Shown here piece by piece: positions 126 to 36,547 of a stretch of 64,000 nt of DNA. The first letter of the stretch is position 1. Every line of letters begins with the position of its first letter. The DNA lies in the NCBI GenBank assembly GCA_026627385.1, contig JAPNUR010000005.1:94498-158497 (forward strand). Reading direction: 5' to 3'. The position numbers were made by a program, and so were the translations under genes. Below the pieces are notes generated by a model. That model was not told the DNA's origin and made no database searches. It worked only from the letters and a program-made list of their open reading frames with translations. The DNA is from Bacillota bacterium. GTDB taxonomy: Bacteria; Bacillota; Sulfobacillia; Sulfobacillales; Sulfobacillaceae.

Positions 126-284
126 GATCTCCTCGCGAGCGAACGGCCTGTCGGGCTTGCCGGGCGTGAAGACCGCCTCCTTTTCTCCATTGTACGCCAG
201 AGCCCAGCCCCTGTGTCACCTTTAGTGCTCGTCACGTAAGATAGGGAACGGCTTAGAGACTACTCGAATACCATTCATGACCCT

Positions 285-1358
285 TTGAAAGGAATGAACC
301 ACGTGCGTTGCCGTCTCGCCTTCGACAAAGTAGGTCAACCCCTTCGCCGCACGGCCGACGTGCACAGGCTGTTAGCCACACCCCGGGCTCAGGGCCGTTG
401 CGGCGTCGCCTTTATCGTTCCCGAATCGGCCTCCCGCCTACATCTTGACGTCATGGTGTTTCTCCTGCCGTCTAGTCCCCGGCCGCCCTACACCACGTAC
501 GAGTTCGCCGTCGAAGTGCCGACGGGAAAATCTCTCTGCGCCGTACCGCTGACCCCCTGCCCTCACTATCCTGTGTTCACGGCTCACCTCTCCCTCAGGA
601 TTGTGGCCACCCCCATCCAGGGCCGCCTGGTCGTTGTGGCCCGACGGGGCCGAGACCCCAAGGCGCGTACCATCTTGTTTGATACGCCATGGATATGGCC
701 AACAGTTCGGCCATCGTGTCTTAACGGGGTCGACAACAACCTCGACCTCGGTGCGGCAGCCACTTGCCTTGCGACCAAAGGTTATCGCTTTGTTGGCCGC
801 TACCTTGGCGGTCCCTGTTATCCCGGCGTGGTCCTATCCACCGTAGAGGCCGTCCAATTGAGTCAAGCGGGCTTGGCCATCGTCAGTCTTTATAGCGGCG
901 CCAATGTTGTGCGGGCATTTCGCTGTGGCGTTCAATCGAGTGAGGCCGGCTCCCGCGATGGGCTGAACGCGGTCAACCAAGCCGTCAAACTGAGGCAACC
1001 GCCCCACTCCGCCATCTTTCTTGATCTGCAAGGAAATCAAATTTCACCTCCCGCCGATTGGCTGAATTACATCAAAGGCTGGGTCCAGGCCGTGCAACAA
1101 AATCAATACCAGCCCGGAATCTATTCATCGCCGTCGCAGTTGCTCACCATTGAGGCAGAACCCTGGGCGGGGTCCAGTCTCCTTTATTGGGTCGCTAAAG
1201 AGTATGCTGATACCGAAGTCATTCCACCGCCATGCCCCACCGTGGTGTTGCCCTTCGCAGCAATCTGGCAATACGCCCTGTCTGTCACGGTGTGCGGGTC
1301 ACCGGGCGCTGACATTGATAGCGCGGTCAGTACCGACTTCATGTGGTCCCTAACGTAG
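285..1358 (+). CDS. DUF1906 / Rv2525c-like glycoside-hydrolase-like domain protein with an unassigned N-terminal extension of about 140 aa. The start codon is uncertain.
   Basis: The C-terminal ~210 aa (LDLGAAATCLATKGYRFVGRYLGG...AGLAIVSLYSG...AIFLDLQGN...WLNYIKGWVQAV...YQPGIYSS) match the pattern I associate with DUF1906 TIM-barrel-like domains. The N-terminal part has no recognisable motif. Confidence 0.55.
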   Translation: MKGMNHVRCRLAFDKVGQPLRRTADVHRLLATPRAQGRCGVAFIVPESASRLHLDVMVFLLPSSPRPPYTTYEFAVEVPTGKSLCAVPLTPCPHYPVFTAHLSLRIVATPIQGRLVVVARRGRDPKARTILFDTPWIWPTVRPSCLNGVDNNLDLGAAATCLATKGYRFVGRYLGGPCYPGVVLSTVEAVQLSQAGLAIVSLYSGANVVRAFRCGVQSSEAGSRDGLNAVNQAVKLRQPPHSAIFLDLQGNQISPPADWLNYIKGWVQAVQQNQYQPGIYSSPSQLLTIEAEPWAGSSLLYWVAKEYADTEVIPPPCPTVVLPFAAIWQYALSVTVCGSPGADIDSAVSTDFMWSLT

Positions 1359-20273: not shown

Positions 20274-21086
20274 TCATGTGCCCCGGCTATCTACCGTCTC
20301 TAACACCACCCGCACCACTTCGGGTCGGGCTCCCCAGCGAATCGGAAGTTCTGACGTACCCAAGCCCCGCGATGTAATCAGCACCGGGCGGCCGGGAGAT
20401 TCTAAGCGCCCGGCCACATACGGCTCAGGAATGCGCGTGTGGCGGACCAGCACTCCCAATCCCGGCAAGACCACTTGCCCACCGTGGGTGTGACCCGCCA
20501 AAATCAGCGACACACGCTCGATGCCGGGAAGAAGCCATGCGTCCGGCCGGTGAGACAATAACACGGCACGATGGGACGACGCACGGAGGACTCCCAGAAC
20601 CTGATTCCAGTTGGGGCTCCCGCGCACCAGATCCGGGAGGCCCGCAAGCAGCAACGTCTCTCCGTTTTTCTGAATAGGAACCACGCGATTGTCCAACAGA
20701 CGCGCGCCCGGCTGCCAGGGCTCTACCGCGAGGCGATTCTGGTGATAATCGTGATTGCCCGACACGTAGTATGCGCCGTACGGCGCGCTCAGTGCATCCA
20801 ATCGCTGCGCGAGCGGCCGGCGCGGCCGCGTTGGCGAATAGAGGTCTCCGGTGACGGCCACCAGATCAGCGGTTGCAAGCCATTGTTGAAAAGGCGCCCA
20901 CGAAAAAACCCCCACCCGTCCATGAAGATCTGACAGGTGGAGGATGGAAAAGCCATCAAACGCTTCTGGCAGGTCGGCAATTTTGACGCGATATTCCACT
21001 GCCAACCAGTGATACGACTCCAGCGTCGAGACTATCAATCCCGCGGCTAACAGCCCGCCTGTCGCGATCAGAGCGGTTGTTCCCAT
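20274..21086 (-). CDS. Membrane-anchored metallophosphoesterase (calcineurin-like, YkuE-type)
   Basis: N-terminal TM helix, then ILHLSDLHG, TGDLY, GNHDY and GHTHGGQV. Confidence 0.85.
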   Translation of the reverse strand: MGTTALIATGGLLAAGLIVSTLESYHWLAVEYRVKIADLPEAFDGFSILHLSDLHGRVGVFSWAPFQQWLATADLVAVTGDLYSPTRPRRPLAQRLDALSAPYGAYYVSGNHDYHQNRLAVEPWQPGARLLDNRVVPIQKNGETLLLAGLPDLVRGSPNWNQVLGVLRASSHRAVLLSHRPDAWLLPGIERVSLILAGHTHGGQVVLPGLGVLVRHTRIPEPYVAGRLESPGRPVLITSRGLGTSELPIRWGARPEVVRVVLETVDSRGT

Positions 21087-33267: not shown

Positions 33268-34074
33268 GTGATTCTGCTGTCATATCGTCAGATACTTGGG
33301 TCCCGCATTCGCACACTTCGGGAATCCGCGGGCTGGTCTCAGGCGGAAATGGCGCGCCGCATACCCTTATCGCAAAAGCAGTTGTCGCGCTTAGAACTGG
33401 GCGACGTGTCGCTGGTGGACCGCCACCTCCTCATCCGCATTGCTGAGATCTTAGATACGCCCTTGGCCACCGGAGAGCTCAACCAGTGGCTCCATGCCTT
33501 CGGCTACCGCCCGCACATTATGCCGCTCCTGCCACTACCCCCGGACTGGCCAGCCTTGCTCAATCATTTTGGGTTTTATCCCGCCATGATTGTGGATTTC
33601 GCCCGCTATATCCGCAAAGGCAATCAGGTCCTCGAGTCGGTCCACGGCGTATCGATCGAGGGTTTGTCAGGAATTCGGCGCAATTGGCTGTGGCACTATT
33701 TTCATCCGGACGGCATGCTGTATCATACCTATCCCCGCGATTCCCGCGCTCGTGTTTTGAACCGGTTGTTTTGGGATTGGGCCCCATACTTTAACGAGCC
33801 TTGGAATCAAGAGCTACGACACGACTTAGAAACCGCCGTTGGGATCTTATGGTCCGATTTGCAAAACCGCTATCAAATTCCCAGTGAGCCGGTCGCTTCG
33901 CCAATGTCGGAAACGGTGACCATTCCCAGGTCTGATGGGTCGATTCTGCTCTTTCAAACACAGGTGGCGCATTTGCCGCGACGGCCGGATCTGTTGACGG
34001 TGGTCTACGAACCGTTAAACGACGATGCGCTCTACTGGTGCCGGACAGAAACGTGCCGGCCTAAGGGCGCCTAA
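33268..34074 (+). CDS. XRE-family HTH transcriptional regulator with an MmyB-like C-terminal ligand-binding domain
   Basis: The HTH is LGSRIRTLRESAGWSQAEMARRIPLSQKQLSRLELGD. It is followed by the MmyB-style pattern ..L..AG..P.....P..YPAMIVDF....GN.....V....N.L...F...... and LTVVYEPLNDDA. Confidence 0.65.
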   Translation: MILLSYRQILGSRIRTLRESAGWSQAEMARRIPLSQKQLSRLELGDVSLVDRHLLIRIAEILDTPLATGELNQWLHAFGYRPHIMPLLPLPPDWPALLNHFGFYPAMIVDFARYIRKGNQVLESVHGVSIEGLSGIRRNWLWHYFHPDGMLYHTYPRDSRARVLNRLFWDWAPYFNEPWNQELRHDLETAVGILWSDLQNRYQIPSEPVASPMSETVTIPRSDGSILLFQTQVAHLPRRPDLLTVVYEPLNDDALYWCRTETCRPKGA

Positions 34075-34076
34075 CG

Positions 34077-34694
34077 GTGGACGCGTGGGATGGGTTGCGC
34101 CGCCGGTGGGCCGCGATTCCTCCGACCGTCGCGATCCACATCACCGCCCCGCGTCAGGACGCTGCCTCCGTCCGCGCAACCGAAGACCTGTTAAGCGAAT
34201 TGATGGCCCCCGGCGATGCTGTGACGGTGCACTGGCATGTCGACATGAAGAGTCCCGGTCTCGTGATTCGCTGTTCTCGCGACCACCACACAGGGCCCAT
34301 CAGCTTTTGGGGTACGCCTTCAGGCTACGAGCTGGAAGGTTTGCTGTATGCCCTCGAGCGCTTGGCCTTTGGTCCCCGGACCCCGACACCATTTTCTGCT
34401 CCCCATACTGAGCTGATCCGCCAAATCGAGCGTCCCCTGGCGATTGACCTCTACGTTGCCCCCACGTGAGCGTTTTGTCCGCAGATGGTCCATCTGCTCG
34501 TTGACGCCGCGACCATCAATCCCCGGATCTCCGGGCGCATCATTCAAGTGGCCGAGTTTCCCGACTGCGCCCGCCGCCACCAGATTTGCCGCACGCCCAC
34601 CCTGGTGACGGCCTCGGGCCGCAGACTAAGCGGCAATGTGCCCCCGCCCCTGGTCGCCGGTTTTCTGTGGCGTGAAACCCTTAAAGAGGAATAG
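34077..34694 (+). CDS. Candidate selenoprotein: double-thioredoxin-fold protein (AhpF N-terminal domain / glutaredoxin-like PDO family) with UGA (34467..34469) as codon 131, giving a U-A-F-C redox motif
   Basis: Track ORFs 34077..34469 and 34485..34694 share one frame. Read-through gives ..ISFWGTPSGYELEGLLYAL...LAIDLYVAPT-U-AFCPQMVHLLVDAATINPRISGRIIQVAEFPDCARRHQICRTPTLV.., which is the family pattern with Sec in place of the first Cys of CxxC. A SECIS-like hairpin begins 11 nt after the UGA. The start is GTG, 2 nt after the regulator's stop. Confidence 0.6.
34481..34497 (+). promoter_or_regulatory. SECIS-like hairpin downstream of the in-frame UGA
   Basis: GCAGAU-GGUCC-AUCUGC is a perfect 6-bp stem, with a possible seventh G-C pair. 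The loop GGU lies at +21 to +23 counted from the U of UGA. Compare E. coli fdhF (GGUC apical loop, G23/U24). Confidence 0.5.
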
Positions 34695-34732: not shown

Positions 34733-35077
34733 TCATTTTACGAGCTTCTCAGGCCATCCTTGGATGCCGCCCCTCAGGTTGACCGCACGGTAGCCATAAC
34801 TCCGCAGCAGCTTTGCTGCCTGGCGACCCCGCCGCTCACTGGCGTCCACGGTCAGGATCGGCTCTTTGGCTGGCAGCTCGTGTAGCCGCTTTTGCAATTC
34901 GACGTATGGGATGAGATGGGACCCTTTAATATGCCCCTGGCGATACCGCGACAAGTCTCTCAGATCCACCACGAAATACCGCTGACCCGAGCTCAACAGC
35001 GCGCGCCCGTCGACGTCTAGCGGCTCTCTAGCCGTCCTGGGGCCGCGCTTGAACTGTCCTTTGAGCCATTCAATCAC
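34733..35077 (-). CDS. Single-domain rhodanese-homology protein with Asp in place of the catalytic Cys
   Basis: VVDLRD...Y..GHIKGS..IP....L......PILTVDASERRGRQAAKLLRSYGYRAVNLRGGIQGW aligns to IVVYCrsGrRS.qAA..L...G...V..L.GG...W, with D at the Cys position. Its start overlaps the stop of the upstream peroxiredoxin (ATGA). Confidence 0.8.
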   Translation of the reverse strand: MIEWLKGQFKRGPRTAREPLDVDGRALLSSGQRYFVVDLRDLSRYRQGHIKGSHLIPYVELQKRLHELPAKEPILTVDASERRGRQAAKLLRSYGYRAVNLRGGIQGWPEKLVK

Positions 35078-35532
35078 CCTTTAAGATCCTCCAACACCTG
35101 AAACACCGCGTCGTAATGAGCGCGGTTCCCCGCCTCAAATGCGGTGTTTTGATAAACCAGGCGATGTTGACGGTCTAACACAAACACCGAACGGCGCGCG
35201 ATGCCATGCGCCTGGTCAAGCACCCCATACGCCTGGGTGGTTTTCCGCATCCAGTCAGAGGCCAGTTCAAATGGCAAGCCGCCTAATGCCAATTTAAAAA
35301 TCTTCAACGCATAGACCTGGTCGCAGGACACAGCCACCAACGAACCGCCGGATTGTTGTATGCGATGATAGTCCGCCTTCCAGAGGACTAACTCTTGAGT
35401 TCACCCACCGGTGAACGCCAAAGGGTAAAACGCCACTACCAGCGGACCTTGCTCGACCTGCCTTGTGGACACAAATTCGCCCCCGCTGGTATCCGTCAGT
35501 TGGATAGTCGGAGCTACATCACCGAGATTCAC
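35074..35532 (-). CDS. Candidate selenoprotein: peroxiredoxin (AhpC/TSA-Bcp-like) with UGA (35403..35401) as codon 44 in place of the peroxidatic Cys
   Basis: The track shows only the C-terminal part (35074..35340). My reverse-complement reading of the same frame upstream gives (GTG)MNLGDVAPTIQLTDTSGGEFVSTRQVEQGPLVVAFYPLAFTGG-U-TQELVLWKADYHRIQQSGGSLVAVSCDQ... This matches the Prx consensus ..G..AP.F.L.D..G..V.L.....VVL.FYP.AFT..C..E. A G-rich SD (GGGGGGG) ends 5 nt before the GTG. A hairpin begins 10 nt after the UGA. Confidence 0.65.
35369..35390 (-). promoter_or_regulatory. SECIS-like hairpin downstream of the peroxiredoxin UGA
   Basis: mRNA sense: UAGUCC-U-CU-GGAA-GG-C-GGACUA. The outer stem is 6 bp and the inner stem has C-G and U-G pairs. 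The apical GGAA has G at +23/+24 from the U of UGA. Confidence 0.45.
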
Positions 35533-35611
35533 AATGACCCCCCCTGCTTTCTGGATCCTGGCATTCTGACTTCGTCGTCCTTCGTCCCCATCATATCACG
35601 CCCTAAACCGC

Positions 35612-36547
35612 TTACCGCTCATCCGCTGACCGAAATATGTTCGACAAATAGTTTCGCCCCGTATCGGGGCACAGAGCCACCACGTAACCCGCGCGCGTTA
35701 GCGTTCGTGCTTGATCTAACGCCACCTTGACAATCGCCCCCGACGAACCGCCGACCATGATCCCTTCTTGGCGCGCCAGTTCCCGTGTCATGTGAAAGGC
35801 CTCGTCATCCGTGACCGGCACCCAGCGATCGACCACCTCCTGGTCCAACGTTTCAGGTATGTAGTCTTCACCCATGCCTTCGATTTGAAAAGGCTTGACA
35901 GGCCCCGTAAAAATCGATCCGACGGGATCAGCGCCCACCACTTCAATCGACGGATCGCGTTCTTTCAAATAGCGGCCGATGCCGGTAATCGTACCTCCGG
36001 TTCCGGCGCCAGCGACGACCATCGCCAGCTGACCTCCGGTTGCCTCCCAGATTTCCGGTCCCGTCGTGGCGTAGTGGGCATCTGGATTGGCTGGCTGTTC
36101 AAATTGTCCCATGTAGGCGGCCCCAGGGATAGTCGAAGCTAACTCACGCGCCACGTTGTGATAGTGGTTGGGATCGTCGCGCCCGACGTCGGGAACCACT
36201 TTGACCGTCGCCCCATACGCTTGCAACAGCCGGATTTTGTCAACGCTCATTTTGTCGGGCACCACAAAAATGCTGCGATAACCTAACACGGCAGCGGCCT
36301 GCGCCAGCGCAATCCCGGTGTTGCCGGCCGTTGCCTCGACAATGGTCCCGCCAGGTGCTAACCGCCCCTGGGCTTCGGCCGCGCGAATGAGAGCGAGTCC
36401 TATCCGATCCTTAATGGACCCGCCAGGGTTGACGCTCTCCAATTTCACGAGCACGCGCGCGCGTTCCGAGCCGCCCACCCGATGGAGGCGGATGAGCGGG
36501 GTGTTCCCTATCACCTCCAGCACCGTATCGTAAATGCCTAACGCCAT
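35612..36547 (-). CDS. cysK: Cysteine synthase / cystathionine beta-synthase-family PLP enzyme
   Basis: Contains IGNTPLIRL, the PLP-lysine region LESVNPGGSIKDR, EATAGNTGIALA and GAGTGGTITG. Substrate specificity (CysK, CysM or CBS) cannot be decided by eye. Confidence 0.85.
   Translation of the reverse strand: MALGIYDTVLEVIGNTPLIRLHRVGGSERARVLVKLESVNPGGSIKDRIGLALIRAAEAQGRLAPGGTIVEATAGNTGIALAQAAAVLGYRSIFVVPDKMSVDKIRLLQAYGATVKVVPDVGRDDPNHYHNVARELASTIPGAAYMGQFEQPANPDAHYATTGPEIWEATGGQLAMVVAGAGTGGTITGIGRYLKERDPSIEVVGADPVGSIFTGPVKPFQIEGMGEDYIPETLDQEVVDRWVPVTDDEAFHMTRELARQEGIMVGGSSGAIVKVALDQARTLTRAGYVVALCPDTGRNYLSNIFRSADER

Follow-up and report, generated by a model that had tools for sequence, protein, structure and literature searches.

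The locus described here raises the question of what becomes of a peroxiredoxin (Prx) gene whose reading frame is interrupted by a stop codon at the very position of the catalytic cysteine: is such a gene broken, split in two or recoded? The gene is located on the minus strand at 35074..35532 of a stretch of 64,000 nucleotides from contig JAPNUR010000005.1 (assembly GCA_026627385.1), a metagenome-assembled genome (MAG) of a Bacillota bacterium in the Sulfobacillaceae. The whole stretch is referred to as the window. As judged from the sequence, 35532..35074 is highly likely to be a single intact gene that encodes a BCP/PrxQ-like peroxiredoxin of 152 residues and whose UGA at codon 44 would be decoded as selenocysteine (Sec), the peroxidatic residue. 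The evidence comes from the reading frame, the alignment with catalytic cysteines, the conservation of the TGA and the selection on both sides of it, the hairpins downstream of the UGA and a second gene of the same kind next door.

Reading frame and catalytic site

The full-length gene (35074..35532, minus strand) comprises 152 codons including UGA-44; it starts with GTG at 35532 and ends at its own stop, TGA 35076..35074. The translation runs from VNLGDVAPTIQL...VVAFYPLAFTGG through the TGA into TQELVLWKADY...EDLKG and the terminal stop. In fuller letters, the two sides of the TGA read VNLGDVAPTIQLTDTSGGEFVSTRQVEQGPLVVAFYPLAFTGG and TQELVLWKADYHRIQQ...EDLKG. The TGA at 35403..35401 is the only internal stop of the frame, and the list of open reading frames (ORFs) holds the gene as two separate pieces, 35401..35532 (43 residues) and 35074..35340 (88 residues). 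When the stop is replaced by Cys, the product matches the Pfam family AhpC-TSA (PF00578) with E = 9e-25, whereby residues 4-127 cover positions 2-123 of the 124-position model.

Upstream of the GTG start lies a Shine-Dalgarno-like run of seven G residues (35538..35544, minus strand), separated from it by the 5-nucleotide spacer TCATT. All Prx orthologs have their start codon (ATG or GTG) at the identical position, preceded by a Shine-Dalgarno sequence of the AGGAGG or GGGGG type. The plus-strand ORF 35395..35730 is a codon-aligned antisense of the Prx gene and is broken in five of nine orthologs, where the sense codon 38 is TTA or CTA. A preliminary description of this DNA had already extended the C-terminal fragment of the ORF track upstream through TGA 35403..35401 to the GTG at 35532 behind the G7 run, and had dismissed ORF 35395..35730 as an antisense artifact. 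The translation, the Pfam match, the equivalent start sites of the orthologs and the disrupted antisense frames all agree with that description.

The same description had placed the TGA exactly at the peroxidatic cysteine, which is borne out by alignment. In the six Cys homologs aligned (27-32% identity), the residue at the TGA is always Cys, Thr/Ser41 is kept, and Pro37 and Arg114 do not vary. Solved relatives in the PDB also place their peroxidatic Cys on the column of residue 44, as in 2ywn, which reads AFYPAAFTQVCTKE. Read as Sec, the in-frame UGA (35401..35403, minus strand) would thus supply U44 at the peroxidatic position of P37-x3-T41-x2-U44. Written out, this motif is P37-L-A-F-T41-G-G-U44 (PxxxTxxU), and it matches the published Sec-peroxiredoxin motif.

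On sequence grounds, the protein is assigned to the BCP/PrxQ-like group. Its best solved relative is Bcp4 from Sulfolobus (3hjp), next to 2ywn, with a profile E-value of 6.5e-20 over the full length. The resolving Cys of PrxQ is located at position +5 (CxxxxC), which is Val49 in all Prx orthologs. The window protein has a single Cys, C70, which most orthologs replace by Thr or Ser, and the protein lacks a conserved Cys altogether. This would make it an enzyme of the 1-Sec type that is unable to recycle itself, the class that had been anticipated from the apparent lack of a resolving Cys.

Conservation and selection across UGA-44

Twelve close homologs of the peroxiredoxin (71-97% identity) were retrieved from 5.8 billion proteins, all of them C-terminal fragments of 85-98 residues. 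Among the recorded proteins, the homolog from Sulfobacillus harzensis is an 86-residue "redoxin domain-containing protein". In the MAG itself, whose proteins of this region are MCY0898338 to MCY0898345, the proteins that flank the Prx (rhodanese and cysteine synthase) have the consecutive GenBank accessions MCY0898344 and MCY0898345, so that the deposited annotation holds no protein for the Prx gene.

The contigs of the twelve fragments and six genome contigs, including that of S. harzensis DSM 109850, served as the set of orthologs. Codon 44 is TGA in all 11 distinct orthologs of this set, S. harzensis DSM 109850 included (protein identity 68-97%), within the context FYPLAFT[GS]G-TGA-[TS]QELVLWK. 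A second stop or a frameshift is found in none of the 11. The mean proportions of nonsynonymous and synonymous differences (pN/pS) are 0.23/0.69 before the TGA (codons 1-43) and 0.18/0.74 after it (codons 45-148). Since synonymous sites are saturated between the lineages (pS about 0.7) and pN is low on both sides of the TGA, both halves must be translated in frame and kept under purifying selection. The best-conserved part of the gene consists of the 20 codons from the TGA to the first possible restart (TQELVLWK is invariant), and this part is devoid of any start codon. The preliminary description had named relatives with an evident pseudogene and further frameshifts as the sign of decay. The relatives instead share the TGA, show no more disruptions and are under purifying selection on both sides of it.

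A scan of metagenomes gave no additional close orthologs of the Prx, and only distant Cys and Sec homologs. Three distant homologs from JGI metagenomes (26-37% identity) likewise have a TGA in frame at the peroxidatic codon, namely L020 (Ga0209069_10021426, 379..744), L022 (Ga0058897_11084440, 257..709) and L023 (Ga0066388_101257210, 408..857). Their motifs are AFYPLAFTGG-TGA-TGEF and AFYPLAFTPV-TGA-T, and each TGA is followed by a hairpin of its own that differs from the others. Judging by these motifs, the three are taken as further Sec forms of the same broad Prx family.

The hairpin downstream of UGA-44

A hairpin resembling a selenocysteine insertion sequence (SECIS) is located at 35369..35390 (minus strand) and begins 10 nucleotides past the UGA. 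Folding places the stem where it had been drawn in the preliminary description, with the apical G residues at +23/+24. With the U of UGA numbered 1, the six conserved pairs are U14-A35, N15-U34, G16-C33, U17-A32, C18-G31 and C19-G30, and the apical GGAA occupies positions 23-26. In three orthologs the stem reaches nine pairs and is closed by the GGAA tetraloop.

The codons of the stem are also conserved at the nucleotide level. Only four of the 71 invariant degenerate amino-acid columns of the Prx are encoded identically across the nine sequences. The hairpin stem accounts for three of these frozen codons, Val49 (GTC), Leu50 (CTC) and Asp54 (GAC), with an estimated hypergeometric p of about 0.001. 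Leu48 has A, G or U at its third position, the one that pairs with U34. Rfam at gathering thresholds reported only tRNA-Pro in the whole window, while a permissive Rfam scan of 35250..35650 returned two chance-level matches, neither of them SECIS-like. Because of its canonical position and its frozen synonymous stem codons, the hairpin is graded as a probable SECIS, despite the null results for folding energy and covariation given below.

A second UGA in the neighboring gene

The window was scanned for in-frame TGAs with coding-like flanks, which yielded the Prx site and a TGA at 34467..34469 (plus strand). Other candidates, at 20274, 3300, 8439 and 23031, were rejected as ordinary gene ends or overlapping frames. 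The second site lies within a gene of 205 codons (34077..34694, plus strand) that is convergent with the Prx gene and the rhodanese-like gene behind it. It codes for a thioredoxin-fold protein that resembles protein disulfide oxidoreductase (PDO) and the N-terminal domain of AhpF, and which is a second candidate selenoprotein. The frame reads ...DLYVAPT-TGA-AFCPQMVHLL..., where the UGA is the first residue of the UxxC redox motif (VAPT-U-AF-C-PQ).

With Cys at this position, the protein matches TIGR02187 (PDO_seleno_TRX) with E = 1.5e-23 and the AhpF model TIGR03140 with E = 1.9e-15 (model positions 25-178 on residues 24-180). Pfam Thioredoxin_3 matches as well. Its PDB matches are PDO (1a8l) and the AhpF N-terminal domain (1zyn/1hyu), and the first Cys of their CxxC aligns with the TGA. 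The protein consists of two thioredoxin-like folds and carries the UxxC in the second, a layout that it shares with the TIGR02187 family.

The PDO-like gene is found in all orthologous Prx loci with enough flank. Its TGA is present in nine of nine distinct orthologs at a protein identity of merely 34-57%, and pN is lower than pS on both sides. Gene callers cut this gene into pieces of 128-130 and 68-70 residues. A SECIS-like hairpin with a 7-bp stem and a GUN triloop (34481..34497, plus strand) begins 11 nucleotides past the UGA. Across nine sequences, 100% of the cells of this hairpin pair, compared to 22-38% for slid controls, and one pair is compensatory (G-C to C-G). Frozen codons occur in only two of 27 invariant columns, H+8 (CAT) and L+9 (CTG), both of which lie in the 3' arm of the hairpin. 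In two independent genes of one locus, a conserved UGA coincides with a redox-active Cys and precedes a conserved hairpin, which is by itself a good argument for the decoding of UGA as Sec in this lineage.

Decoding of the UGA codons

Several results weigh against selenocysteine and against the roles proposed for the two genes. A tblastn search with SelA, SelB and SelD from E. coli gave weak GTPase matches only in the window and about 260 kb of related loci, and ARAGORN detected no tRNA-Sec in the 64-kb window and the related loci; the window contains tRNA-Pro only. With the SelB of Symbiobacterium as database query (taken from the supplement of PMC1794560), none of the best 120 of 8000 matches is named Sulfobacillus or carries accessions of this MAG. 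The Sec machinery is documented in the literature for named Sulfobacillus species and not for this genome. The Prx hairpin folds no better than expected (z = -0.76; 40 of 200 shuffles fold equally well), RNAalifold and pair counting revealed no compensatory substitution in it, as the stem never varies, and its frozen codons could in principle stem from another constraint at the nucleotide level. The PDO-like protein scores 83.3 bits against TIGR02187, below the equivalog cut-off of 185, and by this measure would be a divergent relative and not a strict equivalog. Finally, the partnership of the two proteins that is proposed below draws on adjacency and analogy, and their convergent genes are not co-transcribed.

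One SelB candidate (P0108) was rejected as it comes from a different MAG. As a side observation, an unrelated hot-spring MAG (L028, 5441..8280 of JAJYMS010000153.1 in GCA_021786825.1, and L029) has a thioredoxin-reductase-like gene (312 residues, Pyr_redox_2) 5 nucleotides before selB, with MTHFR after it.

An improbable alternative is that UGA-44 is read through as a standard amino acid, be it Cys or Trp by near-cognate suppression or as a result of a lineage-wide reassignment of UGA. It would agree with the Sec machinery not having been located for this genome and with TGA being the least used stop, as the 32 long frames of the window end in 6 TGA, 13 TAA and 13 TAG. However, a codon that still terminates six of the 32 long frames as well as the Prx gene itself is a normal stop and has not been reassigned. 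In addition, each of the two conserved TGAs coincides with a redox-active Cys and has a conserved hairpin behind it at the spacing of a SECIS, a combination that is the signature of Sec and not of leaky termination. Named species of Sulfobacillus, the genus to which some of the orthologs belong, are moreover documented Sec users. Peng et al. 2016 (PMC5029168), who defined the Sec trait by SelD/SelA/SelB, count S. acidophilus, with 7 selenoproteins, and S. thermosulfidooxidans, with 8, as Sec-utilizing organisms, and Sec-containing formate dehydrogenases were reported in all Sulfobacillus genomes (Justice et al. 2014). In a small sample, the rarity of TGA among the stops of a window with 58% G+C is unusual for a GC-rich genome.

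More improbable still is a genuinely split gene that needs no selenium. Here, a 43-residue peptide would end at UGA-44 and the C-terminal part would be translated separately from one of the possible TTG, ATG or GTG starts located 8-21 codons past the TGA. These putative restarts vary in position between the orthologs (fragments P0001-P0012), and the products would have no catalytic residue. The stretch between the TGA and the restart is the most conserved of the gene and has no start codon, which excludes such a split.

A pseudogene in which a nonsense mutation turned the codon of the catalytic Cys from TGY into TGA, as the missing GenBank protein between MCY0898344 and MCY0898345 and the 85-98-residue fragments of the gene callers might suggest, is barely credible, because 11 of 11 lineages with saturated synonymous sites share the TGA, no lineage has acquired a second stop or a frameshift, the adjoining PDO-like gene displays the same pattern independently, and purifying selection (pN far below pS) acts on both halves.

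Proposed mechanism of the probable selenocysteine peroxiredoxin

With Sec as the residue inserted at UGA-44, the standard bacterial route would apply: SelB with GTP and Sec-tRNA(Sec) would bind the hairpin 10 nucleotides past the UGA and deliver Sec. In the folded enzyme, the selenolate, placed by Pro37, Thr41 and Arg114, would attack the peroxide and be converted into a selenenic acid. The oxidized peroxiredoxin would then be reduced by the PDO-like UxxC protein, which may itself be reduced by a thioredoxin reductase encoded elsewhere. Electrons would thus pass from NAD(P)H via thioredoxin reductase, PDO(UxxC) and Prx(U) to the peroxide.

The PDO-like protein (34077..34694, plus strand) is the likely reductant of the peroxiredoxin because the two genes are adjacent in all loci with enough flank and because of the analogy to Sulfolobus Bcp and to AhpF. 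In bacteria, AhpC is reduced directly by the N-terminal domain of AhpF. The Sulfolobus proteins Bcp1, Bcp3 and Bcp4 depend for their regeneration on NADPH, thioredoxin reductase and PDO, and not on thioredoxin.

A more far-reaching proposal, possible but doubtful, is that the Sec-Prx and the Sec-PDO form a dedicated two-selenoprotein peroxide relay, in which the selenolate of the PDO would resolve the selenenic acid of the Prx via an intermolecular Se-Se (diselenide) intermediate, with the Cys-less rhodanese and the cysteine-synthase-like enzyme in the same module. The latter two would then contribute, for example, docking or the handling of persulfide or selenide in a metal-rich, acidic and oxidizing habitat. 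A relay of this kind between two selenoproteins has, to our knowledge, not been described biochemically.

Flanking genes

The Prx gene is directly followed by a rhodanese-like gene of 114 residues (34733..35077, minus strand), whose GTG start overlaps the Prx stop (GTGA) and which has NCBIfam matches of the rhodanese type. The protein contains zero cysteines, and its active-site loop reads TVDASERRGRQ. In every orthologous locus with enough flank, a Cys-less rhodanese-like gene trails the Prx, and the loop of the orthologs (L001-L016, L026, L027) follows the pattern TVD-x-S-x-RR-x-RQAAK. With no Cys in this loop, the protein can be neither a usual sulfurtransferase nor a thiol reductant: it is catalytically "dead", yet strongly conserved. 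In one locus (L008), the N-terminal part of the rhodanese appears frameshifted or truncated.

At the other end, 79 nucleotides upstream of the Prx gene, lies a gene for a pyridoxal-phosphate-dependent (PLP) enzyme of the cysteine synthase/cystathionine beta-synthase family (35612..36547, minus strand), with matches to TIGR01137 and TIGR01136 below their cut-offs. The order of PLP enzyme (PALP), Prx and rhodanese is kept in the relatives.

The PDO-like gene, in turn, is preceded by a gene for an XRE/MmyB-like transcription regulator (33268..34074, plus strand; Pfam HTH_31 and MLTR_LBD). The stop of the regulator is at 34074 and the PDO-like gene starts at 34077. A regulator with an XRE-type helix-turn-helix adjoins the PDO-like gene in the relatives too, and it is a candidate regulator of the redox cluster. 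A scan for promoters and terminators gave nothing that defines the operon.

Comparison with known systems

Sec-peroxiredoxins of the TxxU family (COG1225/PF00578) have long been established (Zhang et al. 2005, PMC1088965; Peng et al. 2016, PMC5029168; a 2026 review, PMC13188914). In the Sargasso Sea survey they already ranked with the most numerous families of selenoproteins, and by 2016 they were known from 78 bacterial genomes. Gene callers tend to divide or miss genes of this kind. The window Prx shares with them the AhpC/TSA fold, the PxxxTxxU motif, the UGA at the peroxidatic Cys, a downstream hairpin with an apical G and widespread Cys homologs. It differs in that this clade (S. harzensis and related MAGs from hot-spring or acid habitats) is represented only by fragments in the protein databases searched, and in its constant neighbors, a Cys-less rhodanese-like gene behind the Prx gene and a Sec-PDO gene facing it.

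A precedent for the chemistry is PrxU from Eubacterium (Peptoclostridium) acidaminophilum, the biochemically characterized Sec-peroxiredoxin (Sohling et al. 2001), which likewise has Sec at the peroxidatic position. The preliminary description had cited PrxU in this sense, and as a precedent it stands. The window Prx is nevertheless not an ortholog of PrxU: the PrxU equivalog of NCBIfam (NF040737) gives the window Prx 46.3 bits at a cut-off of 270, in a match that covers part of the 233-position model, and PrxU is a larger enzyme of the AhpC/Prx1 type, whereas the window Prx is BCP/PrxQ-like with 152 residues. A "selenocysteine-containing peroxiredoxin PrxU" of Sb. thermotolerans was also considered and set aside; in the protein table of the proteomics paper that names it, it appears to be a 178-residue thioredoxin peroxidase and hence a different gene.

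The closest solved relatives are archaeal, namely Bcp4 from S. solfataricus (3hjp) and the peroxiredoxin from S. tokodaii (2ywn), and the presence of a PDO homolog beside the window Prx is a further likeness to the Sulfolobus Bcp/PDO system. Differences are that both active sites in the window would carry Sec instead of Cys, that the host is bacterial and not archaeal, and that 2ywn has the resolving Cys of CxxxxC at +5 where the window Prx has Val49. AhpE from Mycobacterium tuberculosis (1xxu, 1xvw), a 1-Cys enzyme, is comparable in its length (153 residues), its FPLAFTGxC-type motif, the lack of a resolving Cys and the use of an external reductant. It is a weaker match, with E = 5e-13 over residues 2-129 only compared to 6.5e-20 for the archaeal BCPs, and it uses Cys.

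For the PDO-like protein, the "homologue of AhpF N-terminal domain" or PDO_seleno_TRX (TIGR02187) with UxxC is a listed selenoprotein family known from Carboxydothermus and Symbiobacterium, and Symbiobacterium has both this family and Sec-Prx. Reported pairs of selenoprotein genes comprise Prx with a SelW-like protein and a Prx-like with an AhpD-like protein. No published record was found of a conserved adjacency between the AhpF-N-terminal-domain/PDO selenoprotein and Sec-Prx.

Significance

The peroxiredoxin is very probably an unannotated addition to a long-established Sec-Prx family, which makes its novelty modest, and the existing knowledge of recoding and of peroxiredoxin chemistry is unchanged by it. 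What is new, on this modest scale, is that there was no correct record for this clade and that Sec-Prx, Sec-PDO and a Cys-less rhodanese occur in a conserved arrangement. Correcting the annotation of both genes would add two selenoproteins to the inventory of a Sulfobacillus-related lineage, the named species of which are organisms of bioleaching and acid mines. The Sec-Prx/Sec-PDO pair hints at the use of selenium by this lineage for both steps of peroxide detoxification by Prx and PDO, and the pair would be a convenient system to study what Sec buys over Cys in the recycling of peroxiredoxins.

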